This document shows positions 3,551 through 50,835 of a DNA stretch of 64,000 nt, in pieces. The position numbers and the translations under genes were made by a program. Origin of the DNA: an uncultured Candidatus Saccharibacteria bacterium (GTDB lineage: Bacteria > Patescibacteriota > JABMPQ01 > JAQVVF01); NCBI GenBank assembly GCA_964574655.1, contig CAZNOH010000003.1, positions 58,149-122,148 of the forward strand, in the 5' to 3' direction. The notes under the pieces were generated by a model. The model was not told where the DNA came from and made no database searches. It was given only the letters and a program-made list of their open reading frames with translations. Within the stretch, counting starts at the first letter, position 1; each line of letters begins with the position of its first letter.

Positions 3551-4429
3551 TCACAACAATACCAAAATTATTCCCATTATAACTAAAGCAATTCCCATAA
3601 TCAATTTTAATGTCTTGAGTTTTGATTCTTGCCACTCTTTCAACACTGCAATCTTTTTTCCAGCTAAAACCAAAATCCAAATTGTTATTAATGGCAAAAC
3701 AAATAATAAGTTATAAAGCAAAAGGTAAAAAATAATTCGCGCAATTCCTAAATTATCATGCATTATCTGAACAGATCCAACATACAAAGGCAAAGAACAA
3801 GGCATTTCAAATAACGTTACTAAAATTCCCAAAATAATCGTTGACGGAATGCTCGCCTTTTCCACAAATTTAGTCAACATCCATCTTCTTTTTTGCGAAA
3901 CTTCCAAAGAAAAACCCTTTCCATGCCACCAAAAATCTTTAATATTAATCAAGCCTGCAACAACAATAAAAAATGCCAAAACATATTTCAGATACAAAGA
4001 AACATCGCCAAAATAAGGCATTGTCACCAAAACATCGATAAATTTATAAAAAAACACACCAACTAAAAAATATGTTGAAAAGACAGTGATAATATAGATT
4101 CCTCCAATTTTCAAAATCTCTTTAAATTTTTTGCCATTATCCTCTTCTTCAGGATGTACAAAAATAATTAAATAACCTAACAACAAAATAATTAATCCAA
4201 TTGCGCATGGATTGATTCCATCAATCAAACCAGCGACTATTACTATTGACAAGGTTAATTGTTCTGCATTCAAATGCAACATTTGCCCAACATCACAACC
4301 AAAAATAACAATTTTTTGCGCCTTACAAGTTGCTTCTGCAGCCAAAGCAAAATTAGAAAAACTAGCAAATAGCAAGCAAGAAGCAATAACTAACAAAATT
4401 ATAAAATTTGTTTTTCTAAAATATTTCAT
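3551..4429 (-). CDS. CcdA/DsbD-family transmembrane thiol-disulfide electron transporter
   Basis: Multi-TM protein with one Cys in each of two half-repeats in a proline context (GINPCAIG and EMPCSLP), as in CcdA. Adjacent to the DsbA-like gene. Confidence 0.55.
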   Translation of the reverse strand: MKYFRKTNFIILLVIASCLLFASFSNFALAAEATCKAQKIVIFGCDVGQMLHLNAEQLTLSIVIVAGLIDGINPCAIGLIILLLGYLIIFVHPEEEDNGKKFKEILKIGGIYIITVFSTYFLVGVFFYKFIDVLVTMPYFGDVSLYLKYVLAFFIVVAGLINIKDFWWHGKGFSLEVSQKRRWMLTKFVEKASIPSTIILGILVTLFEMPCSLPLYVGSVQIMHDNLGIARIIFYLLLYNLLFVLPLITIWILVLAGKKIAVLKEWQESKLKTLKLIMGIALVIMGIILVLL

Positions 4430-4525
4430 AAACTAAAGATATCATAACAATATTAGATATTCAAGAAGCATATTTTTTACTTTTGCCTTGTAACTTTTTA
4501 CTTTTTCTTTTTTAATTTTGCCTTT

Positions 4526-6166
4526 TTATAAAATTTCTTCTCGCTTCTCTTTGATATACACAATCCAGTCTTCTATTATTTCAATCATTAATTGAAATGG
4601 GGCTTCAATCAAAAAATCCATTACAAAAATAAAAATATTAACTCTGGAAAAAGTATTTGAAATCCATCTGCCAAACCTTAAAATTGGCAAAGTAAATATA
4701 TCAAACAAAAAAGTAATAACATTCTCTTTTTCAGTTTGCAAGATTAATTCTCTAACAGATTGCCTCAATGACACTCCAAAGAAACAGACAATGCTAAATA
4801 ATACGATGAAAATAGCGCCTGAAACATAATTAAAATCTAATCTATGCAATGCCCAAATTATAAAACCAAAAGTCATTGAAAAAACAAGCAAATATAAAAA
4901 GGAAAAAATAAAATTAAAAATAAATTTTCTTTTTCTTAATAAAACTCTTTCCCTAACAAATATTTTTCTTTTTACATCATCATAAACAATTTCTTTTATG
5001 CCAGAAACTATTTTATCAGAATTCTTTTCTCCTGGCACTCGCACCAACAAAGCAACTAAAAATATCAAAAACGGCGGAATCAAAATATTTACTGTAAATG
5101 CCGAATAATTTATCAACGAAAGAAAAATCAATTCATAAGGCACTTCAATAATCAATGCCAACAAAATTTTTGTAAGCAAAATATAAATAACAGCCCGAAC
5201 AGCCTTGCGTCTTAATTTTATCTTAAATTCAGCATATTTTTCTAAACACACAGAACGCAATTTATCTTCCAAAGACAGAATATCAGGTGGCTGAAAAGGA
5301 TCAAATTCAATTGATGGTTCTGGCGGATTCAAAAATAATTCCTTTGCATTTTCCGGACTTTGATCAATAAAGCTTTTTAAAATTACAAATGGCGCAACGT
5401 ATTTTCTGACTAGCTGATATAATCTGTTCGACATTTTATGATTCAACTGTCGATCAATTCCCTCTTTTATTAAATCAATATCATTAGCAATTTTTTCAAT
5501 TGTCAAATATGACGGCTTATCAAACCAATTCGGAAAATGCAATCTAAACAGATGATAAGACAATATATCATCGTCTGACTTAATCAACGCGCGATGTATT
5601 GCTATATAAACTTGAATATCTTTTTCTCCTTCTCTAATTCCTTGCTGTTCCAAAGAAATCTTTTTCGCCAACATGTCATACATGCAATTCACCAAGGCTG
5701 ATTCCACTATTTTTGGTTTTAACAAATTATCAATTTCACAAGCTGCAATTGCCAACAACCACTCAATTTTTTTCGATGATCCAGGAACTTCTCTCTTTGC
5801 CAATTGATTGTTTAAGAAAATATATTTATTCAAGATACCGCCGATTTCATAAACAGTTTCTTCAGTCACGCTCATGTTTTCAAGATGCCTTGATCTGATT
5901 AGCTCTCTAACTAATGAATCTGCAATATTCCAAGCCTTGTTTTTATGGACAAATCTTCTTTTTATAATTCTCAAAATAGCGCTTTTTCTCAACAAATGTT
6001 CCTCCCGATAATCAACAGCTGTCCTAATTTTTTCATAGAAAAAAGACAGTGTTCCAATCACCTCATTGACTTTTATCAACGTTCCTTTTTTTTTCTTAGC
6101 CAAAGATGAAGCTTCTAAAAAAGCATCAAACAAATCATCGGCCCTTTTGGATAACCTTTTTTGCAT
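4526..6166 (-). CDS. Hypothetical protein with soluble N-terminal region and C-terminal polytopic membrane domain
   Basis: Long ORF, uniform AT-rich coding composition. About 300 aa hydrophilic then about 5 predicted TM helices. No recognisable motif. Confidence 0.5.
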   Translation of the reverse strand: MQKRLSKRADDLFDAFLEASSLAKKKKGTLIKVNEVIGTLSFFYEKIRTAVDYREEHLLRKSAILRIIKRRFVHKNKAWNIADSLVRELIRSRHLENMSVTEETVYEIGGILNKYIFLNNQLAKREVPGSSKKIEWLLAIAACEIDNLLKPKIVESALVNCMYDMLAKKISLEQQGIREGEKDIQVYIAIHRALIKSDDDILSYHLFRLHFPNWFDKPSYLTIEKIANDIDLIKEGIDRQLNHKMSNRLYQLVRKYVAPFVILKSFIDQSPENAKELFLNPPEPSIEFDPFQPPDILSLEDKLRSVCLEKYAEFKIKLRRKAVRAVIYILLTKILLALIIEVPYELIFLSLINYSAFTVNILIPPFLIFLVALLVRVPGEKNSDKIVSGIKEIVYDDVKRKIFVRERVLLRKRKFIFNFIFSFLYLLVFSMTFGFIIWALHRLDFNYVSGAIFIVLFSIVCFFGVSLRQSVRELILQTEKENVITFLFDIFTLPILRFGRWISNTFSRVNIFIFVMDFLIEAPFQLMIEIIEDWIVYIKEKREEIL

Positions 6167-13318: not shown

Positions 13319-13319
13319 T

Positions 13320-14207
13320 TTATTTTAATGACTTTTTACGCGCAACCAAATAAAAACTAATTATTATTAATAATAACACAAAAAATATAATTATATAAAT
13401 CAGAGAATTATTTTCTTCTTTTATTTTATCGAAATTTACTTTTTCAATTCTTTCATTTCCAGCTTTGTCAATTACTTTCACTTGTATTTCTTGATTCAAT
13501 CTTTGATTTTTCAATACATAAGGGCTTTCTGTTATTACAAAACTGCTATCTCCTTCTTTTACTTCATAATGATCAATTCCAGAATTCTTGTCAGAAGTCG
13601 CAAAACTTAAAAAATATTTTCCATTAAACAATCCATCTTTTTTGCTCATTTCAGGCTTGAAAGATTCAGGCAAAATAGTATCGCTCTTAATATCCGTCTC
13701 AATTCCATTTGAAGTTCTGCTGATTAAAAAATCTAAATTAGAAAAAACAATATTTGCCAGCTCGCCATTCTCGTTATTTTTTGCAATTTGCGAATTATCT
13801 TCAAAAAAAATATTTGCTGTTCCATCTTTAATCGCTTCAAAAGTCAAACTGCCAAGCAAGCCATTTTTTCCTTCATAACCATTAGCAATAATTCCTGCCA
13901 AATTTATTTTAGTATCATTGCTTTGAGGCCTAACAATCCAAAAATTTATTAAAGAATTTCCATCGCTAAAATCTTTATATTTCAATGTTTCAGAAGAAAA
14001 ACCAACATTTAAATCAACAGCATTTATTGCTTCAAATCCTGTATCCAAAAAAACTTTAGCAGAAAAAAAATCTGTAATTCCAATTTCTTTTTTATCCAAT
14101 TCAAAATACAATCTTGCTGCCTTCACGCCATTGCCAAAAAACAAGCATAAAAACATGCTTATTAAAACTAATACGAAAAAAGATTTTTTTTTACTTTTTA
14201 CTTGCAA
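13320..14207 (-). CDS. Membrane-anchored cohesin-like domain protein (signal peptide, C-terminal TM anchor)
   Basis: FSAKVFLDTGFEAINAVDLNVGFS...LLGSLTFEAIKDGTANIFF cohesin-like segment. C-terminal hydrophobic helix followed by RKKSLK. Apparent TTG start overlaps a dispersed repeat motif. Confidence 0.4.
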   Translation of the reverse strand: MQVKSKKKSFFVLVLISMFLCLFFGNGVKAARLYFELDKKEIGITDFFSAKVFLDTGFEAINAVDLNVGFSSETLKYKDFSDGNSLINFWIVRPQSNDTKINLAGIIANGYEGKNGLLGSLTFEAIKDGTANIFFEDNSQIAKNNENGELANIVFSNLDFLISRTSNGIETDIKSDTILPESFKPEMSKKDGLFNGKYFLSFATSDKNSGIDHYEVKEGDSSFVITESPYVLKNQRLNQEIQVKVIDKAGNERIEKVNFDKIKEENNSLIYIIIFFVLLLIIISFYLVARKKSLK

Positions 14208-14241
14208 CTTTTTACTTTTTAATTTTTAATTTTGACTTTTC

Positions 14242-15156
14242 TTAGCCTGTCCAATAATACGCCATTACGCTCAAATCTCTAATGTCAATAATTCCGTCCT
14301 TTTTAAGTCTTTCATCAACATTCTTTTTTGCCAGATCAGTTAAACCGCGCCCCCACCAATAAGCCAAAATAGACATATCAACAATATTAACCTTGCAATC
14401 AGTATTCAAATCAGCTCTTCCCGGACAAGCCCTTTCTTTTTTCTTTTTAGAAACTTCTTTGACTTCAAAGTCCACTTTTGGCGACAAATCAGAAATACTT
14501 CCGCCATTGCCAACGCTTGCCCTTGCCTTGGCTCCATAATCACCATACTCCATTGAAGAAGTATCTAAATTATAAAGCCACAAACCACTATCATCAGCAA
14601 CCGTCAAGCCAGATGTTGGCGTATTCCAAATTGAATCAAAATACACTGAAACATTAACTAACGGCTTGCTCTTTCCAAAAACACTGACAATATCTCCTCT
14701 TGCCACCTCATCTTTATCAACATCAATTGTCGGCGACAAAAAGATACCGCTGATCTGCGTTGTCACGCCAGAAGTCACTGATATTGCAAAAGCTAACGAA
14801 TTTGTCCTTCTGCCGTCTATATCATCGCCATACAAAGTAAACATATAAACTCCAGCTGACAAGCCAGTTAAAGTAATTTCAAAATTAGCATCTGGTCCAG
14901 CTTGAGTGCTTGCCGAAATCGCCCCATCTTTCAAAAGCGTTACAAAGCTTGAAGGCGCTGCCATGCCTTTGAATACTACGCTTGTTTCTGCTGGCGGAGT
15001 AATCGGCAAAATTTCAATGCGAAAATTGGAAGTATCCGAAGCTCTGCATGGAACACGTAACATAGAACATAAAACAAACGACAAAATTGCCATTAGAAAA
15101 AATTTATTCCGCATGTTCCATATTATATGTTTCATGTTATGTATTATATATTTCAC
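14242..15156 (-). CDS. Secreted protein with C-terminal dockerin-like domain
   Basis: Two Ca-binding-loop-like repeats ADLNTDCKVNIVDMSILAYWWG and KKDGIIDIRDLSVMAYYW at the C-terminus. N-terminal beta-rich domain. True start may be an internal Met (MRNKFFLMAILSF). Confidence 0.5.
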   Translation of the reverse strand: MKYIIHNMKHIIWNMRNKFFLMAILSFVLCSMLRVPCRASDTSNFRIEILPITPPAETSVVFKGMAAPSSFVTLLKDGAISASTQAGPDANFEITLTGLSAGVYMFTLYGDDIDGRRTNSLAFAISVTSGVTTQISGIFLSPTIDVDKDEVARGDIVSVFGKSKPLVNVSVYFDSIWNTPTSGLTVADDSGLWLYNLDTSSMEYGDYGAKARASVGNGGSISDLSPKVDFEVKEVSKKKKERACPGRADLNTDCKVNIVDMSILAYWWGRGLTDLAKKNVDERLKKDGIIDIRDLSVMAYYWTG

Positions 15157-15158
15157 AC

Positions 15159-18766: not shown

Positions 18767-18847
18767 ATTTTATTTCCAAAAACAGCTAAACAAAACTAAA
18801 ACAAAGAGATTCTACTCTTTGTAACAGCTTTAAAAATTATATCTTTT

Positions 18848-20098
18848 TTATTTTTCTTTGCTTTTTTCATCTTTTTTCTCCTTTGGCGGAACTTTTATTT
18901 TATCGCCTAAGCCTAAAACATAAGGCGCTTTCAATTTATTCACTCCTGCTAGAATTTTCCAAGACACATCAAATTTTTTCGCCAAATTTTTTATATCATC
19001 GCCTTGTTTAATCTCATAATCAATCCAAGATTTTGCAATCCATTTTTTCCTTTCTTGGTAAAACCAATACAAAAATCCCGCAAATAATATAAAAAACGCA
19101 ATCAAACCTTGGACGATCAAACCATTTGTTTTTGGCATCACAAAAAACCAGATTGCCGGTCTTTCTAATTTAGTCAGCTCTTTGCCGCTTTCTATACCAA
19201 CTGAAGCCTCCTTATTAGCATCGTAGGAAACTTCCAAAACAGCCTTGTACCAACCTCCCCAAAACGGCTTTTTTGCTTCAAAATTCCAATCTGATGTCTC
19301 GCCTCGCAAAACCGGATGCTGCCCGCCATTTTCTGTGATTGTTACTCCAAAAATGTTTTTTAATTTAGCCTTAATATCGGCATCTATTGACACATTGCCC
19401 AAATTTTTCACCAATGGATGCAAATTATAAACGTTTAGATTGTTCTTAACTGGCAATTTCTCAAACCCAGCAATTTCTAATTTTCTCACAATCTCTCCTG
19501 GAACTGTAATAGCCATTCTCATACCAGTCCGAACTAACAAATTTACTCCGCTTTGATTTTTTGGCGCTTCTTTTTTTTCCTGAACCATAATACAACCATT
19601 GCTTTCCCCAACAGGAGCATTTTTGGGCACATTTACGACAAAAGATACTGCTTCTGTTTTAGTTGGCTCCAATGTAACTTCCTTTTTTGCCAATTTAACC
19701 CAAGTTCCTACTTCTTTTTGTTGATCCAAAAATTGACTGCAAGCAAAACCACCGCCAGACGAATGCTCCGAATCAACAGCATAAACCAACAAAGTTTTTG
19801 TTTCTTTAGTATTATTAACTACTAAAACTGCATCGTCTTTTTTATCACCAAGATTAAGATTATATATAAAAATTGATTCTGTTCTGGGATTAGAAGAATC
19901 AGGATTTGCCGGCCGCCCACCGAAACCCCCATATTCAATTGCAAAAGATGGAAATGATATCAACAAGCCAAAAATCAAAAAAACAGCTATCCAAATCCAA
20001 GAACATCTGTTTTTACACCTCACAAAAAACAAGTTCTTTACAACTATAACAAATCGCCTCAACCATTTATTGGCGTTAACATTTTTCATATTATTCAA
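18848..20098 (-). CDS. Secreted/membrane protein with DUF916-like N-terminal domain (tentative), C-proximal TM helix and C-terminal LysM domain
   Basis: Signal-anchor, then segment resembling CscA/DUF916 proteins of WxL loci (GGFGGRPANPDSSNPRTESIFIYNLNLGDKK...VLVVNNTKETKTLLVYAVDS). TM helix. LysM (YEIKQGDDIKNLAKKFDVSWKILAGVN). Confidence 0.45.
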   Translation of the reverse strand: MNNMKNVNANKWLRRFVIVVKNLFFVRCKNRCSWIWIAVFLIFGLLISFPSFAIEYGGFGGRPANPDSSNPRTESIFIYNLNLGDKKDDAVLVVNNTKETKTLLVYAVDSEHSSGGGFACSQFLDQQKEVGTWVKLAKKEVTLEPTKTEAVSFVVNVPKNAPVGESNGCIMVQEKKEAPKNQSGVNLLVRTGMRMAITVPGEIVRKLEIAGFEKLPVKNNLNVYNLHPLVKNLGNVSIDADIKAKLKNIFGVTITENGGQHPVLRGETSDWNFEAKKPFWGGWYKAVLEVSYDANKEASVGIESGKELTKLERPAIWFFVMPKTNGLIVQGLIAFFILFAGFLYWFYQERKKWIAKSWIDYEIKQGDDIKNLAKKFDVSWKILAGVNKLKAPYVLGLGDKIKVPPKEKKDEKSKEK

Positions 20099-20107
20099 AA
20101 CTCAATA

Positions 20108-20821
20108 CTAACTAGCAGCAACCGTAATTACCATAGTCAAAGCATAATCAGCTACCGTAGGTTGCTCAGCAGGGATAGTCTGCGAAACAGTTGCACCTGT
20201 TAAATACCAATCACCAATATCATCAGACAAAGCAGCTGCATTCATTATTGTTACACTATTCGTCACACCTTCTGAAAGACCAGTGGAAGCACCTTTAGTA
20301 ATATTTGCTGTTGTACAAACTGCGCATTGGCCTTTAGTGATCGTACCTACACTTGCATCGATTGTCATTTGTCCCGCTTTAACGTCAACATCAGCTCCAT
20401 CTGTACAACCAGGCGTAGCACCAGTTGAATCATTAAAATCAAAATAATTCGGTCCAGTTCCTGTCCACAAAGCTGTTGTAGCTGATCCAGCAACTGATAA
20501 AGTCCAACCAGCATTGGCAGCACTAGGATTAGAAACATACAGCCTCTGAGTATTTGTTCCAAAAGTGCCAGTAGAAGCTGAAGCGCCAGACAAACAAGTC
20601 CAACTAAAAACTTTTGAACTCATAACAACAGAAGGGGCACCAACATCTACATAAGTGGCATCAACAATTGATGTTGATAAAGAACCAGCGCTTATCACTT
20701 GAGTAAAGCTTGAAGTATCAGTCAAAGCCGCCCATGCCACCAAAGAACTGCCACTTGTAAAAGCAATAGCTACAAAAATCACCAATAGAACATTAAATCT
20801 TCTAAAAAATTTTCCAGACAT
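20108..20821 (-). CDS. Secreted WxL-domain protein
   Basis: Signal peptide, two W-x-L motifs (AGWTLSVAG and IGDWYLTGATVSQTIPAEQ). Homologous to the C-terminus of the 809-aa BNR protein. Confidence 0.55.
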   Translation of the reverse strand: MSGKFFRRFNVLLVIFVAIAFTSGSSLVAWAALTDTSSFTQVISAGSLSTSIVDATYVDVGAPSVVMSSKVFSWTCLSGASASTGTFGTNTQRLYVSNPSAANAGWTLSVAGSATTALWTGTGPNYFDFNDSTGATPGCTDGADVDVKAGQMTIDASVGTITKGQCAVCTTANITKGASTGLSEGVTNSVTIMNAAALSDDIGDWYLTGATVSQTIPAEQPTVADYALTMVITVAAS

Positions 20822-20983
20822 ATTTTTATTTTTAATAAGAATTTTTTGAAATATAATCTTTGTCGACCAAGTCCCTTAATCGGCACTTCAAAGATTACAA
20901 ATATACTTCATTATAGCCTATAACAAACAAAAAACAATACCACACTATGAAAAATGTGGATAACTTAATAAATAAAAAACCAG

Positions 20984-21364
20984 CTATTTATTTAGCTGGG
21001 AAACACAAGGAACATCATCATCAACAAATTGTTCAAGATCAAAACTAAGTTGTCCAAATTTGAAACGCAGTGACACAAAGTAACCAGTCTCTGCATCTTC
21101 ATAGGCTGTCATTGCCCAAAAAATTCGCCGATATCGACCATAATCATCATAAAAATAGACATCTGGACCATATTCCATTGCTTCTGCAAGCGACACTTCT
21201 TTCAACTCATCTATTTGAACCCATCCGCCAGGAGAATCATCATTAGCTACAAAAGAATACTTTTTCATTTCAACAACAAGATATCTTGCTTTGACAACTT
21301 TGTTATTTTTGATCCAACAAGGCTTGATAATCAAAGCTTTTACTGTTTGCTCGATTATCATCAC
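20984..21364 (-). CDS. Hypothetical protein (strong GGAGG RBS)
   Basis: ORF preceded by AGGAGGAAGTG-ATG. Followed by terminator hairpin at 20958-20990 (minus strand). Confidence 0.45.
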   Translation of the reverse strand: MMIIEQTVKALIIKPCWIKNNKVVKARYLVVEMKKYSFVANDDSPGGWVQIDELKEVSLAEAMEYGPDVYFYDDYGRYRRIFWAMTAYEDAETGYFVSLRFKFGQLSFDLEQFVDDDVPCVSQLNK

Positions 21365-21558
21365 TTCCTCCTCTTTCCTCTCAAAGAACTAACATTAAAA
21401 GGCATTCGATAAACAATTATAAACTTAAAAAAACATTTTGTCAAGTCAAATTCATCTTGTAAAAACTCTCTCCTATGTTAAAATATCAGCATATTAAAAA
21501 TTTTAAATCAGCGTAGATCAGCGTTAGAAATCAGCGTCAAATCAGCGCTTGTTATCAT

Positions 21559-24051
21559 ATGTTAAAAAAATACAACATTTTAGAACAGGAACAAAAATGG
21601 CAGAATTTTTGGGATCAAAACAATATTTACAAATATGATCCCTTTTCAAAAAAGCCAATTTTCTCAGTTGATACTCCTCCACCATACGCATCTGCCGCCC
21701 ATCTTCATGTTGGCCATGCCATGTCTTATACTCAAGCCGAATTCATCATCCGTTTCAAACGCATGCAAGGCTATAATGTTTTTTATCCAATGGGTTTTGA
21801 TGACAATGGCTTGCCAACTGAAAGATACGTTGAACAAAAATACAAAATTGCTGACAAAACCAAAATTTCCCGCGAAGAATTTATCAAATTATGTTTGCAA
21901 GAAACCAAAGAAGTTGCCAAAACTTATACTTCTCTTTGGAAATCATTAGGCCTTTCAGTTGATTGGTCATTGCTATATTCGACAATTAGTTCAATGTCTC
22001 GCCGTATTTCTCAAAAATCTTTTTTAGATTTATACAAAAAAGACTTGTTAGAACATCGCCAAGAACCAACAATCTGGTGTCCTTCCTGCCAAACAGCATT
22101 GGCCCAAGCTGATCTTGAAGATTCAGAAGAAAAATCCACACTAAATTATATAACGTTCAAACTTAAACACAGAAACACAGAAACACAGAAACATTCTGAC
22201 GCTCCGACGCTCCAAAGCTCCGAAGCTCTCATTGTTGCCACTTCCAGACCAGAATTACTACCAGCTTGTGTCGCCTTATATATCAATCCAGACGACAAAC
22301 GCTACCAAAGATTAATAAATCAAACTGCCATTGTTCCATTATTTAATTATGAAATCGAAATCAAATCTGACCCTTCTGTTGATCCAAAATTTGGCACTGG
22401 CTTAATGATGGTTTGTACTTGGGGCGATTCTGAAGATGTTGCCAAATGGAAAAAAGATCAACTTTCAACCAGACTGATCTTTGATAAATCAGGACACTTA
22501 AATGAAAAAGCAAAACCTTATCAAGGCTTAGCTATTAAAATCGCTCGTATTAAAATTTTAGAAGATTTAAAAAATAAAAATTTATTAATTAAGCAAGAAG
22601 ACATTACTCATGTTTTAAACATCCACGAACGCTGCAAAACTCCAGTTGAATTTTATTTAACAAAACAATGGTTTATTAAAATTCTTGATAATATAGAAGA
22701 TTTCAAAAAACAAGGAGACAAAATAAACTGGTATCCGGTATCAATGAAAAAGAAATATGATACTTGGCTAGATGGATTAAAATGGGATTGGAATATTTCA
22801 AGAGAAAGATATTATGGCGTTCCGTTTCCAGTTTGGTATTGTAGCAAATGTCATGAAACAATTTTGCCAGATGAAAAAGATCTGCCAGTTGATCCAATCG
22901 AAAATGAACCAAAAAATCCTTGCCCAAAATGCCAATCAAATAAATTTATTCCAGAAAAAGATGTCATGGATACTTGGATGACATCATCTTTAACACCTCA
23001 AATCAATTCGCATTGGCAAGAACAAGATGAAAACAAAAAACTTTATCCAATGTCTTTGCGTATTCAAGCTTTTGAAATTATCAGAACTTGGCTTTTTTAT
23101 ACAGTTGTAAAATCTTGGTATCATAAAAAATCTTTACCATGGCAGGATGTCATGATTTCAGGACACGGACTAGACGAACAAGGACGCAAGATTTCCAAAT
23201 CATTAGGAAATTATGAACCAGTTAATAACATCATAAAGCGTTATGGTTCTGATGCACTTAGATATTGGTCTGCAGGATCAAATCTTGGCAATAATTTAAG
23301 ATATAAGGAAGAAGAAGTTAAAGACGGCAAAAAATTAATTACCAAACTTTTCAACGCCAGCAAATTCGGCTTGATGTTCTTAAATAAGAATTCAGAATTG
23401 AGAATTGAGAATAGAGAATTTTCACCTATCGACATTTGGATTTTATCAAAACTACAAGATACAATTAAAAAAGTTACGCAATATTTCAATGATTACGAAT
23501 ACTCGAAAGCAAAGAAGGAAGTCTACAATTTCTTTTGGAAAAATTTTGCTGATAACTATATTGAGCTTGCCAAATCAAGACTCTATAATGATGAAAATAA
23601 GGAAGCTAAACAATCAGCTCAAGCAACACTTTATATTTGCTTAATAAATATTTTAAAAATGTTTGCACCAATCCTTCCACATATTACTGAAGAAATCTGG
23701 CAAGCGATAAAACAATTAAACAATGAAACAAAAAAACAATTTAACAATTTAACAATTGAACAATCAATCCACATCAGTTCTTGGCCAAAACAAGAAAACA
23801 AATTTATCAACAAAAAAATGGAATTACTTGGTGATTCTATTGTAGAAATTTTAAGTTTAGTTCGAAAAACAAAATCAAATGCCAATCTGGCAATGAATAA
23901 AGATATTAAAGAAATAATTATTGACTCTAAAGAAAAAGATTTAGAAAAATTCTTTCCAGATCTAGCCTCAGCCACTCATGCAGAGCAAATTTCTTTCGGA
24001 ACTGGTGATCAAAATATTGATGATAATCTGAAAATAAAAATTATTTTATAA
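21559..24051 (+). CDS. valS: Valyl-tRNA synthetase (class I aaRS)
   Basis: PPPYASAAHLHVGHA (HIGH-type), RFKRMQGYNV, VDPKFGTG, WCPSCQTAL, DWNISRERYYGVPFPVWYC, KISKSLGN (KMSKS). Best match to the ValRS pattern but IleRS/LeuRS not fully excluded. Carries two in-frame tandem-repeat insertions. Confidence 0.7.
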   Translation: MLKKYNILEQEQKWQNFWDQNNIYKYDPFSKKPIFSVDTPPPYASAAHLHVGHAMSYTQAEFIIRFKRMQGYNVFYPMGFDDNGLPTERYVEQKYKIADKTKISREEFIKLCLQETKEVAKTYTSLWKSLGLSVDWSLLYSTISSMSRRISQKSFLDLYKKDLLEHRQEPTIWCPSCQTALAQADLEDSEEKSTLNYITFKLKHRNTETQKHSDAPTLQSSEALIVATSRPELLPACVALYINPDDKRYQRLINQTAIVPLFNYEIEIKSDPSVDPKFGTGLMMVCTWGDSEDVAKWKKDQLSTRLIFDKSGHLNEKAKPYQGLAIKIARIKILEDLKNKNLLIKQEDITHVLNIHERCKTPVEFYLTKQWFIKILDNIEDFKKQGDKINWYPVSMKKKYDTWLDGLKWDWNISRERYYGVPFPVWYCSKCHETILPDEKDLPVDPIENEPKNPCPKCQSNKFIPEKDVMDTWMTSSLTPQINSHWQEQDENKKLYPMSLRIQAFEIIRTWLFYTVVKSWYHKKSLPWQDVMISGHGLDEQGRKISKSLGNYEPVNNIIKRYGSDALRYWSAGSNLGNNLRYKEEEVKDGKKLITKLFNASKFGLMFLNKNSELRIENREFSPIDIWILSKLQDTIKKVTQYFNDYEYSKAKKEVYNFFWKNFADNYIELAKSRLYNDENKEAKQSAQATLYICLINILKMFAPILPHITEEIWQAIKQLNNETKKQFNNLTIEQSIHISSWPKQENKFINKKMELLGDSIVEILSLVRKTKSNANLAMNKDIKEIIIDSKEKDLEKFFPDLASATHAEQISFGTGDQNIDDNLKIKIIL

Positions 24052-27177: not shown

Positions 27178-28455
27178 TTATTTCTTTATCTTTTTTATTA
27201 TTCTTTCTACTGCCAACGCATCCGCTCCCATCCTCAAATCAACCTTATATTTCTCACTCATCTTCCAAACATCGGCAAAAGATTTTTTCATTGTCTTTTC
27301 TAGCTTTTTATTTACATCAACAAGACTCCAATATTTTCCATCCATATTTTGTAACCATTCAAAATAAGAAACGGTCACGCCTCCAGCATTTGCCAAAATA
27401 TCAGGAATTACCACTTTTTTCTTTTTAAACAAAATTCTGTCAGCATCAGGAGTTGTTGGACCATTTGCCATTTCCAAAATAATATTAGCTTTTATTCTAT
27501 TGGCGTTATCTTTCGTAATTTGATTTTCAATAGCTGCTGGCACTAGAACATCAACATCTAATTCTAACAATTCCGCATTTGTAATCTTCTGTGTATCAAC
27601 TAGACCACTAACACTACCTGTCTTCTCTTTTTGTTTCATTACCTTCTCAAGATCAATACCATCTTTTTTATACACTCCACTTCTTGAATCAGAAACCGCG
27701 ACAACAACGAACCTTTTGTCTTTAGAAATAATTTCCGCAATATTATATCCTACATTTCCAACACCTTGCACTGCAACAGTTATTTTTTCATTTGCTTTAA
27801 TCTTTTTCAACGCCTCGTTTAATGTAAAATATCCGCCTAAAGCAGTTGCTTCCGTTCTCCCCAAAGATCCGCCCTTAGATATTGGCTTTCCAGTAAAAGT
27901 TGGTAGCCACTCATTATCAGCGATTTTTGAATTTTTACTTGTAGCTTTTACCTTTTTACTTTTAACTTTTAACTTTTTAAATTCATCGCTCATCCATGCC
28001 ATTATTTCCGGAGTTGTATTTACATCAGGTGCTGGAATATCCTTATTTGGTCCGATACAATCAAAAATTGCCTTAACATAACCTCTTGATAAATTTTCCA
28101 ATTCTTTTTTTGATAATTTTTTTGGATCAACAATTACTCCGCCTTTTCCACCGCCCAAAGGAATGTTTGCAACTGCGCATTTCATTGCCATCCAAAAAGA
28201 CAAAGCTTTTACTTCAAAATCAGAAACTTCCTGATGAAATCTAATACCGCCTTTATACGGGCCTCTTGCAGAATTATATTGCATTCTAAATCCTTGAAAC
28301 ATCCTAATCTTTCCATCATCCATTTTCACTGGGAAATTAACATAAACTGCTCTTTCTGGTTTTGATAAAATTTCCAAATAGGTTTTATCCAACTTCATCA
28401 AATCAGCTACTCTCCCAAGCTGAACTAATGCATTCTCAAAAACATTTTCAGACAT
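27178..28455 (-). CDS. gdhA: NAD(P)-specific glutamate dehydrogenase
   Basis: KGGIRFH, GGGKGG, GVGNVG Rossmann motif. Contains an in-frame insertion (KKLKVKSKKVKATSKNSKIADNE) encoded by a copy of the dispersed TTTTTACTTTT-type motif. Confidence 0.9.
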   Translation of the reverse strand: MSENVFENALVQLGRVADLMKLDKTYLEILSKPERAVYVNFPVKMDDGKIRMFQGFRMQYNSARGPYKGGIRFHQEVSDFEVKALSFWMAMKCAVANIPLGGGKGGVIVDPKKLSKKELENLSRGYVKAIFDCIGPNKDIPAPDVNTTPEIMAWMSDEFKKLKVKSKKVKATSKNSKIADNEWLPTFTGKPISKGGSLGRTEATALGGYFTLNEALKKIKANEKITVAVQGVGNVGYNIAEIISKDKRFVVVAVSDSRSGVYKKDGIDLEKVMKQKEKTGSVSGLVDTQKITNAELLELDVDVLVPAAIENQITKDNANRIKANIILEMANGPTTPDADRILFKKKKVVIPDILANAGGVTVSYFEWLQNMDGKYWSLVDVNKKLEKTMKKSFADVWKMSEKYKVDLRMGADALAVERIIKKIKK

Positions 28456-28528
28456 ATTGCTTTAGTTAATTAGTTAATTAGTTAATTAGTTTATTAGTAA
28501 TTAGGTAACAATGGAACAATTTAACAAT

Positions 28529-28723
28529 TTATTTCTTGTTGATCTCATCAATTATAGCCTGGATCTTTTTTTCATCAAGTCCATGTGCTAAAGAACCCTG
28601 TTCGATTGTTTCTCCATGAGCCATCAAACAACCAACGCAATGCATTCCATGCTTAACTAAAATATCAACCGTTTCTGGTTTTTCTTCAACTGCCTTGCTG
28701 ATTAAAGTATCTTTTGTAATCAT
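28529..28723 (-). CDS. DUF1858-type small redox-disulfide protein (hybrid-cluster-protein-associated domain)
   Basis: 64 aa with MHCVGC motif in the DUF1858 context (KHGMHCVGCLMAHGETIEQG). Confidence 0.55.
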   Translation of the reverse strand: MITKDTLISKAVEEKPETVDILVKHGMHCVGCLMAHGETIEQGSLAHGLDEKKIQAIIDEINKK

Positions 28724-30469: not shown

Positions 30470-32857
30470 TTATACTGATTCACAAAGTGCATTTAAACCT
30501 CTTACTAAATCAACATAGCGTGCATATTCTTTAATTGCCCTATACTGGCTCTCTCCATCCAATCCTGCTTCTTTCAAAACCATTGCTGCCTGCCCACTGC
30601 CCAAATAATGCCCCTTTTTAAAAGGATGCAAGGTAACCAATCTACCCGATATTGACATTATCCATCTATCCATTGTTGGCTTTGTAAACCCAGTAACACC
30701 CATTGCAAAAGAAGCAACTCTTTCTGGAAAAATCTGTTCCTGAACTTCCAAATCAAGCCTGGCAAAAAGTTCTGCTGAAGCAACATAATAAACATTCGGA
30801 TCAATACCATCTGCCAAAAGCCTTGGCAAAGTGTCAACCACAAAAGCATATGTCACTCCGCTTTCCTGCAAAATGATATTAACATCTGGCTTATTATTTG
30901 TTGCCTTCCGCAATAAATAAACGCCATTAATTGACTCTTCAAATCCTGACAATCCAAGTGCTTTTCGATCCAGCACTTTCTTTGGCGGACGAGTTACAAA
31001 GATTGCAATAATTGCCGGCCAAAGCGATAAAGCTTTTGCCAGCAATGGCCAAATTTCCTGAGGCTCCCAAGGAGTCAAGGTGATCATCGTATCACCAGGG
31101 AAATTCTCTTGCAACAATTGCAAGGCCTGAACATCAGCATGAGTTGGACCATCTTCTCCGGTTTCCAATCCAGCATGTCCACAAACCAAAATAAAAGGAT
31201 TATATGACTGACCTGTTACTACCTTTTTCGCCTGCTGACCAATTGCATGCAACCTTGCTGCAATATGTCCAAGCGGTGCCATAAAAGCAGCATATGACCC
31301 GCCAACACCAATATGATGGCCATTGGCTGACAGTCCTGCTAGAATTGCAGACATTGCATCTTCACAAATCCCACCTGTCGAAAGCTTCCTTGAATCAGGA
31401 TTCCTTTCAGCATGGAAAAATCCATCAGGAAATCCATTTCCAATATTTCCAACACTGACTGAATCCAAGAGATCAGCAGCTGCACAAAGAATTGCTCCAT
31501 AACTTCCTCTATTCAGGAAGTTCAAAGCATCCCCTAAAACACCTCGCAAAGTTACATCATTGCCCGGCGTCAAAATCAAAGATTCTGGAGTATCGCCTTC
31601 TAACAAATCAATTGCTCCGTAGACATTACCAATTTCTGGAGCAAAAATTTTCTTTTCTCTACCATCTTCATTCAAACACGTCTGCGCAATTACCAAATCA
31701 TTCGACAATCTTTTTATTATTTCATAATTACTAATTTCCATCGCCGAACGAATACTTAACAATGCTTGTGCATAACACACTTCAATCCTTTCCTGATCAC
31801 TACCACTTTGGCACAAATTTTCACCAAAGCAGTTTGGCAAAGAAATAACACCTAATTCACGAAGCTCTTCTGTCGCTTCATAAAATCCCGAAGTGCAAAG
31901 CTTGTGGCCTGCACCATGAGATTTTTTGCCAGTAATTCCATATTTGTAACCTTTTTCAGTTCGATAGACAATCATTGTCGGTTGACCATTCTCCCTGTCT
32001 CCCAAAATAGCAAAAGCAGCATTAACTTGTGTAAAGCTCATGCCATCAGGTACATAGATTACGTTCCAATCATGAAGCTGTCCTAACTCCATTGGAGTCC
32101 ATTGGACATAATCGCCAAATTGATCATCTTCTGCACAAACTCGATCCGAATCAATTGATGACTGATTCCAATCAACATGCAAAACAATATTGCTAAGACC
32201 CATTGCTGACGCAGCTGCCATAGCTTCAGAAACACGACCAGGAGTAAGTCCTCCCTCGCCTTCCAAAATATGGACTTTTGGTGCTTTTTCTTTTCCATAG
32301 TAATCGATTCTACCCAAAGCCAAACCAACAGCTGTAGCCAATCCCACTCCCGAAGCACCAGTCGCAATCCTTACAAACGGTGTTGCTGGCGTTGAATGTC
32401 CATCAAGCGCTCTTGCCCTGTATTGCTTAAACAATGGCAAATCAGTTTCAGGATTTCGCCTGAATCCCAACAAATCTTCTAATCGCAATCTGTCCTTCAT
32501 ATCCTCTGGCAATAAATGACTTGCCCCAATTCGAACAACCTCATCCATCAAAGCTAAGGCTGTATAGAGTCCCAAAGCCTTATGACCTGCAGCTTCTACC
32601 CAAACATCAGCATCTTCTCGATTTGGATTTGAAATATCAAAATACAAACCATGATACAACAGATAATTACGAATTACGCCAGAAGAAATTGATCCTCCAG
32701 GATGACCCGAAGTTGGCACAAAGTTGTACAAAATTGCACACAAGCTTCTATACAACTTGAACAGAAATTCCAGATCAGAAAAAGTTGAAGGACCTAAGAG
32801 CTGTCCGTTTTTCACTAGCTTTCCAACATCATGATAACTGCTTCTTCGCTGACTCAT
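30470..32857 (-). CDS. tkt: Transketolase-family thiamine-diphosphate enzyme (long form)
   Basis: GHPGGSISSG, AAGHKALGLYTALAL, EGEGGLTPGRVSEA, GEDGPTHADVQALQ. Strong GGAGGG RBS and higher GC than neighbours. Confidence 0.65.
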   Translation of the reverse strand: MSQRRSSYHDVGKLVKNGQLLGPSTFSDLEFLFKLYRSLCAILYNFVPTSGHPGGSISSGVIRNYLLYHGLYFDISNPNREDADVWVEAAGHKALGLYTALALMDEVVRIGASHLLPEDMKDRLRLEDLLGFRRNPETDLPLFKQYRARALDGHSTPATPFVRIATGASGVGLATAVGLALGRIDYYGKEKAPKVHILEGEGGLTPGRVSEAMAAASAMGLSNIVLHVDWNQSSIDSDRVCAEDDQFGDYVQWTPMELGQLHDWNVIYVPDGMSFTQVNAAFAILGDRENGQPTMIVYRTEKGYKYGITGKKSHGAGHKLCTSGFYEATEELRELGVISLPNCFGENLCQSGSDQERIEVCYAQALLSIRSAMEISNYEIIKRLSNDLVIAQTCLNEDGREKKIFAPEIGNVYGAIDLLEGDTPESLILTPGNDVTLRGVLGDALNFLNRGSYGAILCAAADLLDSVSVGNIGNGFPDGFFHAERNPDSRKLSTGGICEDAMSAILAGLSANGHHIGVGGSYAAFMAPLGHIAARLHAIGQQAKKVVTGQSYNPFILVCGHAGLETGEDGPTHADVQALQLLQENFPGDTMITLTPWEPQEIWPLLAKALSLWPAIIAIFVTRPPKKVLDRKALGLSGFEESINGVYLLRKATNNKPDVNIILQESGVTYAFVVDTLPRLLADGIDPNVYYVASAELFARLDLEVQEQIFPERVASFAMGVTGFTKPTMDRWIMSISGRLVTLHPFKKGHYLGSGQAAMVLKEAGLDGESQYRAIKEYARYVDLVRGLNALCESV

Positions 32858-32899
32858 CTGTCTTCCCTCCTTTTTTGTGGGGATCTAATCAATAAATTT

Positions 32900-34201
32900 C
32901 TAGTACAACCGACCGCCACTTGCAACATAATCAGAAAAACCATTTACATCAAAAGCAGCTCTTCTTATTCTTTCCACTGCCAACTTCAACTCGTCCATGC
33001 TAGTTGCAAAAGAAATCCGCAAGAAATGCGAGTCTTCAACGCCAATGCTTCCAAATGATTTTCGATCCATTGTTGCTACTCCATAACAATACAGCAAGAA
33101 CATTTGTAACAAAGTTGAAGGACTGGTTTTGCACCTCTCAACTTCCGGCAATCCATTATAGATCTTGATGATACCAAGATGATGACAAAGACTTTCCACA
33201 GCCGGAAAAACATAAAACGCTCCACCAGGATTTTGACAAGCAATTCCAGAAATTCGATTCAAAGCAGGAACAATAAAATCTCTCCGCCTTTGGAATTCCG
33301 CAACCATTCTTGCCAATTCAAGTTTGCTTCTTCTATCTTCCAAAGCAACTTGCGCTCCCATTTGCGTAAAAGCTGGCACGCAAGAAAAGAAATTAATATT
33401 GAACATCTTAAACATTCGCGCCTCTTCAACTGTTGGAAATATTGCCCATCCAACTCTGCCTCCAGTCCAAGCATATGACTTGGAAACTCCTGAAACAATA
33501 ATTGTCAATTTTTCCATTCCAGGAACCGAAGCGATTGAAAAATGATGCCTACCATCAAACAGAATATCTTCATAAACTTCATCAGAATAAACTCTGATAT
33601 CATTTCGCCCTAGACCCAATATAGCTTCCGCTATGTGTGTCAATTGTTCCTGAGTCGCTACTCCGCCAGTCGGATTGGAAGGAAAATTCAGAATAACCAA
33701 CTTTGTTTTTGCATTCATCTGCAAAGACAATTGCTGACCAGAAAAAGTAAATTCATCCCTCGGATTCAAATACAATGCTCGAGGAATTGCTCCGACAAAT
33801 CTTATAAAAGATTCATAAATCGGAAATCCAGGACTTGGATAGACAACTTCTTCACCAGAATTGCAATAAACCATCTCACAAAAACCAATCGGCGGTTTTG
33901 CACCAGGAAAAACAACCACTTGATCAGGACTGATTTTTAAACCGCGCCTTAAACCCATTGTTCTTGCAATTGCTTGACGCAAAGACAAAATCCCTTGCGG
34001 ATCACAATAATGAGTCATTCCCTTATCAATCGCATCCTTCACTGCATTTCGAATATACTCAGGAACTTCGAAATCCGGCTCGCCCAAATTGCATCTGATA
34101 ACTCTCATTCCTAATTTTGTTTCTGCTTCTGCAATATATGGTCCAACTTTGAAAGCATTCTCAGTACCCAAGTCATAACATCTTTGTGCAAACAGTTTCA
34201 T
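32900..34201 (-). CDS. Class I/II pyridoxal-phosphate aminotransferase (aspartate/aromatic type)
   Basis: SKSYAWTGGRVGW PLP-lysine motif, NPTGG. Start trimmed to ATG 34199-34201 preceded by AAAGGGAGGGG. Confidence 0.8.
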   Translation of the reverse strand: MKLFAQRCYDLGTENAFKVGPYIAEAETKLGMRVIRCNLGEPDFEVPEYIRNAVKDAIDKGMTHYCDPQGILSLRQAIARTMGLRRGLKISPDQVVVFPGAKPPIGFCEMVYCNSGEEVVYPSPGFPIYESFIRFVGAIPRALYLNPRDEFTFSGQQLSLQMNAKTKLVILNFPSNPTGGVATQEQLTHIAEAILGLGRNDIRVYSDEVYEDILFDGRHHFSIASVPGMEKLTIIVSGVSKSYAWTGGRVGWAIFPTVEEARMFKMFNINFFSCVPAFTQMGAQVALEDRRSKLELARMVAEFQRRRDFIVPALNRISGIACQNPGGAFYVFPAVESLCHHLGIIKIYNGLPEVERCKTSPSTLLQMFLLYCYGVATMDRKSFGSIGVEDSHFLRISFATSMDELKLAVERIRRAAFDVNGFSDYVASGGRLY

Positions 34202-34395
34202 CTCTCCCCTCCCTTTTTGTCTCGGGTTTTTTAAACCCTTGGCTGCTTCGTCTCTTTTAGATACCACAAATTTTAAAAGAACCTGCCTAATCATACATCA
34301 TTAGATTCTAATATATTACACCATCATAAGTCAATTAATCTGTGGATTATTCTCAAAAATCTTGCTATCATAAATTTAGTTTTAATAATGTAGCA

Positions 34396-36075: not shown

Positions 36076-36135
36076 AAATTTTTATTTTTTACTTGCAACT
36101 TTTTACTTTTTAATTTTGACTTTTAATTTTTTCAA

Positions 36136-37490: not shown

Positions 37491-39332
37491 TTACCTACCA
37501 ATTACATAATATCTTTCTGAGAAATTAAACAGAGAATTCAGATAAATAGTGAAAGTATGATCTGTAGTATTCGGCGCAACCTGCAAATCTGCCCACTCCT
37601 TAGATTCAGAATTATAGTATTTCAAATATAAATCTTTCTCTTTCAGGCCTTTAACTTTTTTCTTCAAAACTTTAAATTCAGCCGTTGTATATTCAAAAAC
37701 TAATTTTAATCTAGTTTGTTTGTTTGACTTATATTTATTAAAATCAGTCGTCACTTTCCAATATTTTTTTAACAAATTATTTTTTGCATTCGCATAAAGC
37801 TTTGTATATTTCTTTTGTCTTTCTGCCAAAAAATATCTTTTAGTACTTTTAAATTTAGTTGGATATTTTTTAAAATTTAAATAATAATCCTTGCCATAAT
37901 ATTTTGTATTTTTTGTTTTAACTTTCACTTCATCGGTTTTTGTCGCTTTTTTGGTCACAAATTTTGGATTTCCGACATATTTAATAGCTTGTGAAACAAC
38001 TGCTGTCTCAGCATGCCAAGAATCTCTAAATTTTAGATAAATAGTTTTATTGCCTTTTTCCGAAGACAGTCTAAAAATTTTGTCCGCATTATAAGTCTCC
38101 CAAGACGCACCAACAAAATCGCTTTTCTCTGAAACAATCATTTCTGTTGGACTGCCTGTCAAAGAAGATTCAATACTAATGTTTCTATATGCGGAATAGC
38201 TTCGACCACTATTTATAGAAGTTGAAGAAACAGTTGGACCAGGAGTATAAGTATATTTCAAATCAGTTGGAGTTTTAAAATACGAAACATGTGTTTTATT
38301 ATTTGAATCAAGAAACAATGAAAATTGATTATAATAACCCAAAAGAATAGCCAAAGCAAAATTTCCAGATGTATCTAAAGTAGTATATGTCCATTGCCCG
38401 GAAAAATTAGTTGCATATTTTAATGTTAAACTTGTTAATTCATAATAAACAATTCGCACTGCATTATCACTGTCAACGCCGATAAAAGTATCATAACCTG
38501 ACTGATTAGAGGTATCTAAACTTGTTGCTACCCAAACTCCTGAAGAATTAGTAATGTATTTCAAATCAGCATTTGTTGCGTCAAGATAACTGATATGAAT
38601 TTTATCATTATTTCCAATTGCCAAAGACATAAAAGCGCCAACTGAATTAGAATTGTCTATAGTGCTAACAGACCAAGCACCACTTAAACTATTAGTTGCA
38701 TATTTTAAAGCAGTGTTAGTCACATCATAATAACCAATATGCACATTATTATTGCTATCTAGTGCAAGAGAACTATATTCTCCGACATTTCCATTGCTAT
38801 CTATCGTTATAATCACCCATGATCCAGAAACATTTGTTATATATTTTAAATCAAGATTCGTTGAATCATAATAGCTGATATAGGCCTTATTATTACTATC
38901 TAATCCCAAAGAAGTAATATTCGCCTGAAAAAGACCAACAGAAATAGTTCCAGAATTATCAATCGTCGTTACCACCCAAGATCCAGAAGAATTGGAAGCA
39001 TACTTTAAATTACTACTTGTATAATCAATGTAAGCAATATGAGCTTTATTATTGCTATCCATTTTGATTGATATTCCAAGACCAACATTCCCAACGCTAT
39101 CAATTGTTGTTGCTACCCAAGTGCCGCTTTCATTAGTAATATATTTCAAATCAGCATTAGCAGTATCATAATAAGCAATATGAACATAGCCATTATTATC
39201 AACTGCCACAGCATTCATAACACCAACATTGCCTGTATCCAATGTTGATGTTTGCCAATCCGCAGCCAAAACATTTTGACCAAAAATTAATAAACCAAAA
39301 ATAGCCACCAGAATTAATAATCCTTTTTTCAT
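37491..39332 (-). CDS. Secreted beta-propeller-type repeat protein (about 8 copies of a ~43-aa LKYATN repeat) with lysine-rich C-terminal domain
   Basis: Signal peptide. Repeats of the form NNxVHIAYYDxTNxxLKYATNxSGxWxxTTID. The C-terminal ~150 aa align with the C-terminus of the 175..1920 protein. Confidence 0.6.
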   Translation of the reverse strand: MKKGLLILVAIFGLLIFGQNVLAADWQTSTLDTGNVGVMNAVAVDNNGYVHIAYYDTANADLKYITNESGTWVATTIDSVGNVGLGISIKMDSNNKAHIAYIDYTSSNLKYASNSSGSWVVTTIDNSGTISVGLFQANITSLGLDSNNKAYISYYDSTNLDLKYITNVSGSWVIITIDSNGNVGEYSSLALDSNNNVHIGYYDVTNTALKYATNSLSGAWSVSTIDNSNSVGAFMSLAIGNNDKIHISYLDATNADLKYITNSSGVWVATSLDTSNQSGYDTFIGVDSDNAVRIVYYELTSLTLKYATNFSGQWTYTTLDTSGNFALAILLGYYNQFSLFLDSNNKTHVSYFKTPTDLKYTYTPGPTVSSTSINSGRSYSAYRNISIESSLTGSPTEMIVSEKSDFVGASWETYNADKIFRLSSEKGNKTIYLKFRDSWHAETAVVSQAIKYVGNPKFVTKKATKTDEVKVKTKNTKYYGKDYYLNFKKYPTKFKSTKRYFLAERQKKYTKLYANAKNNLLKKYWKVTTDFNKYKSNKQTRLKLVFEYTTAEFKVLKKKVKGLKEKDLYLKYYNSESKEWADLQVAPNTTDHTFTIYLNSLFNFSERYYVIGR

Positions 39333-42116: not shown

Positions 42117-42225
42117 TTACAAATCAAAAAAATCTTGTTATATTATCACATTAAGATTTCAGTAATTTTTTTTAATTTTTACTTGGAACTTTTTACTTTT
42201 TAATTTTTACTTTTACCTTTTAATA

Positions 42226-46080: not shown

Positions 46081-46112
46081 TATTTTTACTTTTTAATTTT
46101 TACTTTTTTAAC

Positions 46113-49378: not shown

Positions 49379-49428
49379 ACAAAAAAATCGCCAGACAGCG
49401 ATACTTTTTACTTTTGCCTTTTTACTTT

Positions 49429-50835
<1,407 letters not shown>

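Follow-up and report, generated by a model that had tools for sequence, protein, structure and literature searches.

Evidence that a lysine-rich loop of a Saccharibacteria glutamate dehydrogenase shares its DNA with a dispersed family of intergenic heptamer arrays

Proteins of the Candidate Phyla Radiation (CPR), or Patescibacteria, are known for lineage-specific insertions of unclear origin, and the short tandemly repeated repetitive (STRR) sequences of cyanobacteria are, beside the systems cited next, a further intergenic heptamer analogue of the DNA considered here. Rickettsia palindromic elements (RPEs) are about 150 bp long, palindromic, and insert in frame into Rickettsia genes (PMC10969869). 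Heptameric simple sequence repeats (SSRs) lie in intergenic DNA near the ends of open reading frames (ORFs), as described for GGGAATC and GGGGAYT in Xanthomonas and Nostoc; they have been suggested to arise by slippage, and repeats whose unit exceeds 3 nt are as a rule under-represented within ORFs (PMC4692102). Here we analyse a stretch of 64,000 nt from an uncultured Candidatus Saccharibacteria bacterium (GenBank assembly GCA_964574655.1, contig CAZNOH010000003.1, positions 58,149 to 122,148 of the forward strand), hereafter the window, in which a 7-nt-phased array of about 50 nt is translated in frame inside gdh, the gene for glutamate dehydrogenase (GDH), and a family of similar arrays is dispersed through the spacers. 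By sequence comparison the coding and spacer arrays are homologous, and we ask below which of the two is the older partner.

The gene occupies 27178..28455 on the minus strand and is an intact ORF of 425 aa for a hexameric-type GDH (about 47 kDa class). It is a genuine GDH by its domains, its structure match and its conserved residues: the product scores 187.9 bits against PF02812 and 250.5 bits against PF00208 (curated cut-offs 25.3 and 23.4), it is matched by the Pyrococcus furiosus GDH 1GTM with E=5e-130, and it keeps every column that is invariant among the 120 best homologs, which form our GDH comparison set. An AlphaFold2 model built with these homologs reaches a pLDDT of 95.9 and superposes on solved GDHs with a TM score of 0.93 and an rmsd of 1.3-1.9 A. 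The two Pfam domains span residues 33-161 and 195-423, and it is in the linker between them that the protein carries extra residues, 29 here as against 13-14 in canonical GDHs, with 1GTM showing a 12-residue gap at that place. In the model, helix 149-170 runs through KKLKVKSKKVK and gives way to coil, and model confidence dips only in blocks 161-170 (89) and 171-180 (79). Between the two GDH domains, the loop most likely lengthens a predicted surface helix, with a short coil following.

At the DNA level this linker is a tandem array:

27925..27978, minus strand: loop-encoding array of gdh, encoding K160-K177 (KKLKVKSKKVKATSKNSK); the in-frame member of the repeat family.

A 49-nt motif at 27932-27980 had drawn the attention of an earlier, sequence-only reading of the window, which took it for a repeat translated in frame on the minus strand; this part was borne out, KKLKVKSKKVKATSKNSK standing in the 425-aa ORF between MAWMSDEF on one side and IADNEWLPTFTGKPISKGGSLGR on the other. 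Together with the next 9 nt, the array resolves into three units of 21 nt, encoding KKLKVKS, KKVKATS and KNSKIAD. Tandem Repeats Finder (TRF) reports at 27925-27979 a period of 7 (6.6 copies) with a 21-nt super-period (2.6 copies, 82% matches), and the lag-7 self-identity of the loop, 0.78, lies above the 99.9th percentile of coding DNA (0.70; coding mean 0.28). The array is imperfect (79-82% matches), and its length is identical in the window and in two close relatives, L001 and L035. Growth of a heptamer array in threes adds 21 nt, that is 7 codons, and therefore keeps the reading frame.

The same reading had described the motif as otherwise intergenic. The exact motif occurs nowhere else in the window, even at up to 3 mismatches; what the spacers hold are six diverged copies:

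4474..4528, plus strand: copy c1, intergenic, beginning at the stop codon of the gene at 4526..6166 (minus strand) and 45 nt upstream of the gene at 3551..4429 (minus strand).
14188..14240, plus strand: copy c2, intergenic, abutting the stop codon of the gene at 14242..15156 (minus strand); 2 mismatches to the 39-nt core given below.
36079..36132, plus strand: copy c4, occupying the entire spacer from the stop of the Cupin gene (36075) to the next ATG (36136).
42169..42222, plus strand: copy c5, intergenic, 3 nt short of the ATG of the DUF3006 gene (42226); profile E=4.5e-10.
46083..46108, plus strand: copy c6, short (3.7 units), abutting the ruvB stop codon; weak profile match, E=0.075.
49402..49451, plus strand: copy c7, partly within the Wzy_C ligase gene 49429..50835 (minus strand), the remainder in the spacer.

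The copies measure 26-55 nt, and the six outside gdh are 67-88% identical over 48 nt, all of them lying in spacers or overlapping only stop or last codons. A 20-mer from the motif finds 18 matches at up to 3 mismatches (0.09 expected), all within the seven family loci, and TRF gives a period of 7 with 3.7-7.9 copies at each of the seven. Beneath this periodicity lies an ordered core of 39 nt, TTTTTAC TTGCAAC TTTTTAC TTTTTAA TTTTGAC TTTT, from which c2, c4, c5, c7 and a copy on contig L017, which belongs to the L001 genome, differ by 0-4 mismatches and the gdh copy by 6; the members share this ordered core and are therefore more than arrays of one unit. The minus strand is open only in the gdh copy, all six spacer copies being closed by stop codons; c1 (profile E=7e-8, itself a training copy) has stops in every minus-strand frame. 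The possibility that the spacer copies are small ORFs or lysine-rich tails was rejected, as the minus-strand frames are all closed and plus-strand ORFs do not exceed 55 codons.

Loop and spacer DNA agree at 40 of 48 positions. Back-translation of KKLKVKSKKVKATSKNSK with the codon usage of the window reached this figure in 4 of 20,000 trials (P about 2e-4), shuffled loop peptides in 0 of 20,000, and the best other coding 48-mer in the window (about 57 kb of coding sequence) attains 31/48 at most. An nhmmer profile built from five spacer copies only recovers the gdh loops of the window (E=6.9e-5), L035 (4.4e-5) and L001 (1.3e-4), together with the spacer copy in L017 (E=1e-5), so that the nucleotide-level similarity presumed by the sequence-only reading is indeed significant. 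Translated in the frame of gdh, the spacer copies run colinear with the entire loop: c4 gives KKLKVKIKK*KVASKK*K, c5 *KVKVKIKK*KVPSKN*K and a spacer copy of L035 KFKLKLKSKKVKVTSQN*K, asterisks marking stop codons. Identity between gdh and spacers (40-45/56) falls in the same range as identity among spacers (36-48/56). The single non-periodic unit of the family, GTT GCA/ACA AGT, coincides exactly with the conserved Thr/Ser of the loop, with ACA at that position in three spacer copies, and the L035 gdh loop holds AAAAGTTGCAAGTAAAAA, an exact match to this unit. Judged on these comparisons, the loop DNA and the spacer copies are homologous, their similarity going beyond low complexity and peptide constraint.

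Convergence would be the simplest alternative, with loop and spacer arrays arising as independent slippage products of a favoured heptamer, AAAAAGT/TTTTTAC, in a genome where, at 32% GC, lysine-rich coding DNA resembles spacer arrays. Generic arrays of this unit do occur in many unrelated contigs, (GTAAAAA)3 translates as VKSKK*, and an excess of heptameric SSRs, possibly due to polymerase slippage, is known from some bacteria (PMC4692102). We nevertheless regard convergence as improbable, given the shared order of variant units, the odd unit TTG-N-A-N-C with its exact counterpart in L035 gdh, a codon choice that matches beyond peptide constraint, profile E-values around 1e-4, and the lack of any other lysine-rich stretch above 31/48 in the coding sequence of the window.

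The loop itself has a wide distribution. Among the 120 homologs, the linker has the canonical 13 aa in 24 and is lysine-rich and at least 20 aa long in 78, the long forms occurring in Gottesmanbacteria, Microgenomates, Dojkabacteria, Parcubacteria and unnamed groups; 12 divergent GDHs carry K-x-K-x-[T/S] at the offset of KVKAT in the window. The closest of the distant loops belongs to L030, whose GDH is 56% identical to that of the window and sits in a different gene neighbourhood, none of its ten neighbouring genes being detectable in the window. The L030 loop, IKLKTKSEKVKTTTKNSKLTD, matches 13 of 18 loop residues of the window; at the DNA level the two are 77% identical in the loop and 62% in the rest of the gene, shared non-lysine loop residues use the same codon in 6 of 6 cases (45% elsewhere), and the window loop agrees with L030 where the family consensus differs (GTA, ACA, AAT TCA). 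Other distant loops still begin with AAAGTTAAAAGTTAAAAGT in a heptamer-phased start, as in L032 (ATAAAGTTAAAAGTTAAAAGT). An exhaustive protein search with a 61-aa query returned 37 matches, with no further loop of the window type among them. Close relatives that share the order DHH-gdh-T2SSE ATPase always have loops of 26-34 aa, and among them we found no empty site with a short linker and no gain in length tied to family-like sequence. These alignments show the long loop to be old and widespread in CPR GDHs, with no recent net insertion. The sequence-only reading had proposed that a repeat landing in gdh lengthened the loop. It is indeed longer than in typical GDHs, but the relatives give no sign that a landed repeat made it so, and the comparison with orthologs that the reading itself had named as decisive turned out largely against it, the lysine-rich loop being common elsewhere.

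Within the genus-level group, the loop ends are conserved (KKLK[VI]K ... K[IL].D.EWL[PG]TF) and the centre varies, being built of tandem units of AAAAAGT type in the window, L001 and L035, of AAAAATC in L004 and of CACAAAAG in L002. L034 groups with L001 and L035 and has a different loop centre: its gdh is 97-100% identical to that of L035 at both gene ends and 65-69% across the loop (65-90% in the middle). Between the window and L001, identity is 93% in the loop bin versus 84% overall. The gene is accordingly shown to be a recombination mosaic, with exchange of sequence at the loop. At the positions where the window and L030 agree (GTA, ACA and AAT), the L035 loop has the family states GTC, GTT GCA and AAA, which we read as a partial conversion of this loop by a spacer copy.

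A second loop of GDH behaves in the same manner. At L001:8789-8822, within gdh 8140-9426, a perfect (AAAAATC)x4.9 encodes KSKIKNQKSK in a second GDH loop, 3 aa longer than in the window, and L002 has octamers, AAACACNN, at that loop; slippage of the L001 array by one unit would shift the gdh frame, making a phase-variable tract possible. The 62%-identical GDH of L033 (2843-4237) has yet another insert, of about 40 aa and at a different place (..NLASSPTGQAGPAYRSGRWQAGLAYRQAGKLQLTNYKYG..); this insert differs in composition and contains an internal repeat.

The spacer family, for its part, has a narrow distribution. A scan of one genome per species (185,579 species) for TTGNAACTTTTTACTTTTTAA, a 20-base core with the odd unit, gave 24 matches. 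Unrelated phyla account for 23, each a single match; the remaining one is in GCA_028699085.1, the genome assembly of an 89%-identical relative, where the copy lies directly after the secF stop codon (L017, 3 mismatches). The spacer-copy profile had no matches in 21 kb of L002 or 11 kb of L004. By exact-match scan the full family is known from the window genome and one sister species only, and it therefore looks younger than the loop. A metagenome scan with a 21-base core returned, among the matches listed, generic arrays in unrelated contigs (GC 0.36-0.54) and none with the full ordered architecture; simple arrays are common in unrelated metagenomic contigs, so the simple unit arises often, and what is specific to the lineage is the ordered element alone. 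In its ordered form, the spacer family is shown to be restricted to this genus-level group.

Movement of the family can be followed upstream of gdh itself. This spacer measures 147 nt in L035 versus 31-32 nt in L001 and L034, two relatives with gdh genes that reach 93-96% identity outside the loops. The difference is a clean block of 115 nt (L035:3880-3995), absent from L001 and L034, which consists of two inverted family copies and sits about 500 nt upstream of the loop; one of its arms carries the gdh-type AAGGTAAAAG. No target-site duplication is evident when the filled site of L035 is compared with the empty sites of L001 and L034, and the inverted pair can fold, though not significantly better than shuffles (z=-1.4). 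The comparison shows that the family inserts or moves as a discrete block and that copying does occur.

We lean towards the loop as the older partner, native to the GDH of Patescibacteria and not a foreign repeat, with loop DNA copied into spacers where the copies then gained stops, a history that best explains the colinearity with the entire loop. This colinearity includes both the first heptad, conserved across CPR, and the odd unit encoding Thr/Ser. An ancient expansion of slippage type most likely produced the heptamer array with its three 21-nt units, selection keeping it open; loop DNA would then have been copied into spacers by template switching or by non-reciprocal recombination between A/T-rich heptamer arrays, and the spacer copies would have spread and decayed, at times converting the gdh loop back, as in L035. 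The direction from loop to spacers, the copying mechanism and the status of the spacer copies as largely neutral, unstructured filler are what we infer from the patterns above.

Several points weigh against this history. No spacer copy keeps flanking gdh codons (e.g., GATGAATTT on the 5' side and ATCGCTGATAATGAG on the 3' side), so that the direction from loop to spacers is no more than probable. We know of no established mechanism that exports a 50-nt coding segment to many spacers, and the usual direction is from multi-copy to single-copy. The near-identical loop is found in only one distant lineage, L030, whose excess codon identity could stem from lateral exchange or nucleotide-level selection instead of ancestry. 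The census of the family draws on exact-match scans together with a few tens of kb from each relative. Many unrelated metagenomic contigs hold simple (TTTTTAC/TTTTTAA)n arrays, so that the shared unit explains part of the similarity, and this genome has other array families with members both in genes and between them, as would be expected if arrays enter genes.

Such entry is the substance of the main rival, a weaker form of the sequence-only proposal: the ancestor of the window, L001 and L035 would already have had a long loop in heptamer phase, and its centre would then have been overwritten by a family copy. Insertion, or gene conversion aided by microhomology, would have brought the copy in, and selection would then have removed two stop codons; the event would be a replacement, not a lengthening. 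Six spacer copies stand against one gene copy, the loop centres of close relatives have been overwritten by different arrays (AAAAATC in L004, CACAAAAG in L002), the L034 centre differs despite its grouping with L001 and L035, the L035 loop shows family-specific states, and in-frame arrays occur at indel hotspots of other genes while the family inserts as a discrete unit. We hold this route to be rather unlikely all the same: the window loop matches the distant L030 loop over its full length, even at the codons that depart from the family consensus; the first heptad of the loop, conserved across CPR GDHs, is matched by the spacer copies as well; and the relatives offer neither an empty site nor a change in length.

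The placement of the spacer copies raises the separate question of function. Plus-strand genes without a Shine-Dalgarno sequence follow c4, c5 and c6, whose ends lie 3-4 nt from the ATG. Where a copy is A-rich in the mRNA, it adjoins the stop codon of the upstream gene or provides it (4526-4528, 14242-14244, 49429-49451 and L017:2056-2058). The Wzy_C ligase gene takes its final 7 codons and its stop from the first part of c7, the remainder of which sits between that stop and a terminator-like hairpin at 49387-49402, which was confirmed by a scan; a terminator read by eye beside c2 was not confirmed by the terminator scan. Single copies showed no hairpin potential (folding energies of 0 to -1.4 kcal/mol, no better than shuffles) and no inverted-repeat arms, and Rfam and tRNA scans of the window yielded only one tRNA-Glu and no match at any family copy.

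An array of this kind might serve as a nucleotide element, whether recognized by a factor that binds DNA or RNA or acting as an unstructured leader or trailer, selected in the spacers and in gdh alike. The excess codon identity of the L030 loop, the raised identity of the window and L001 in the loop bin, the conservation of the core between species (L017) and the position of unstructured copies exactly at stop codons or just before ATGs would all be in keeping with it. The orientation to transcription is inconsistent, however (in the mRNA sense, four copies are A-rich and three T-rich), loop DNA may differ widely between close relatives, no Rfam family matches, and the promoter signal is no better than in shuffles, all of which makes a conserved nucleotide function a poor prospect.

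As a side observation, the seven window copies are all T-rich on the plus strand whatever the direction of the genes (chance about 1 in 64), and the GC skew is negative across the whole window. A replication-linked polarity of the copies is doubtful and is not relied on here, L035 holding both orientations side by side.

Short-unit arrays in coding DNA are not confined to gdh in this genome:

21559..24051, plus strand: class-I aminoacyl-tRNA synthetase (aaRS) gene, with in-frame 7-8-nt arrays at 22165-22228, 23383-23420 and 23710-23764.
12073-12103 and 12585-12624: in-frame 7-8-nt arrays in the gene for TsaD.
49429..50835, minus strand: Wzy_C (Wzy-type) ligase gene, with in-frame 7-8-nt arrays at 49563-49595, 49612-49665 and 50178-50208.

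In all three proteins the arrays build variable loops, and those of the aaRS and TsaD fall on indel hotspots when compared with the orthologs of L001 and L002. One may entertain, as a tentative and rather doubtful generalization, that short 7-8-nt arrays are copied both ways between spacers and the surface loops of essential enzymes (GDH, class-I aaRS, TsaD, Wzy-type ligase).

Spacers upstream of genes have arrays of their own. Most genes lack a Shine-Dalgarno sequence and have instead a different 7-8-nt tandem array directly upstream of the ATG, as in the spacer upstream of gdh (28462-28536, TTAACTAA x6) and, e.g., at 3472-3548, 8613-8656, 21505-21549, 42962-42994 and 54948-54981; a minority have a strong AAGGAGG, and the orthologous spacers of relatives hold arrays of other units. 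An AATT core is common to many array units (AATTCTC, AGAATTG, CAATTTC, AAATTCT, ATGAATT, AATTTCCG, AAACAATT and TTAAATTG), and several units recur at coding and intergenic sites, for instance AACAATTT at 23710-23764, 28499-28536 and 54940-54981. Two long palindromic spacers, 59949-60083 and 11556-11687, each consist of a heptamer array and its own inverted copy, with arms of 65 nt (75% complementary) and 57 nt (82% complementary), respectively.

Larger differences and repeats were also noted. Tandem repeats of 141-144 nt (about 47 aa) occur at 38406-39227 in the window, within the gene at 37491..39332 (minus strand), and at L002:3021-3334; that gene encodes a protein of 613 aa with no Pfam match in relatives, and L002 has tandem paralogs of 614-616 aa. 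Relative to L001, the window has extra gene blocks at 12791-21364 (tsaD to aaRS, holding c2) and 30470-34294 (DHH gene to bacA).

The gdh DNA shows how one CPR insertion is built, namely as a heptamer array with a 21-nt super-period in which the frame is kept automatically, and the same process acts on several housekeeping genes, array-encoded segments lying at indel hotspots between close relatives. Should two-way copying prove true, new loop sequence for proteins would be drawn continually from spacer-type DNA, a dispersed family of non-coding repeats could originate from a coding loop, and the lineage-specific insertions typical of CPR proteins would gain a concrete mechanism at the DNA level. 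Copying from gene to spacers would be an unusual origin for a bacterial repeat family; copying from spacers to gene would extend RPE-like behaviour to a new phylum and to a non-palindromic element. Our searches of the literature turned up no account of such arrays, or of arrays being used in frame, in Patescibacteria, and both are apparently undescribed there.

How, then, does this locus compare with the systems already known? The likeness to RPEs, on which the sequence-only reading had drawn, lies in a dispersed family of short elements with spacer members and one member in frame within a conserved enzyme of metabolism, at a predicted surface site that the fold can accommodate. An insertion of RPE type did not hold up: the copies are non-palindromic heptamer arrays of about 50 nt, not about 150, with no hairpin potential and no terminal inverted repeats; RPEs are absent from orthologs without the insertion, whereas the GDH host loop occurs in every relative and in distant lineages too; and the copy in the gene probably came first. 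Heptameric SSRs and STRR sequences resemble the family in having 7-nt tandem units in spacers, within about 50 bp of ORF ends and mostly between co-directional genes, and in varying between close relatives. The known arrays are G-rich and form G-quadruplexes, however, whereas those described here are A/T-rich and unstructured, keep their variant units in a fixed order, which marks them as a true dispersed family, and serve as in-frame coding sequence in housekeeping genes.

The small non-autonomous elements of the MITE (miniature inverted-repeat transposable element), ERIC and BOX kinds share the presence and absence between close relatives seen for the 115-nt block of L035, as well as occasional fusion to ORFs, as where c7 supplies the C-terminus and stop of the Wzy gene; they differ in that single copies here have no terminal inverted repeats, no target-site duplication is evident and no link to a transposase was found. 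With contingency loci the arrays share non-triplet tandem units inside ORFs, such as the (AAAAATC)x4.9 of L001 gdh, but the gdh array of the window is imperfect, has a fixed length in the window, L001 and L035, and belongs to a housekeeping enzyme, not to a surface antigen. The lineage-specific expansion segments of CPR proteins are likewise clade-wide insertions, as the GDH loop is in a predicted surface linker of a conserved enzyme; the difference is that here the DNA reveals the construction, in arrays phased by 7 nt, and with it a link to spacer repeats.

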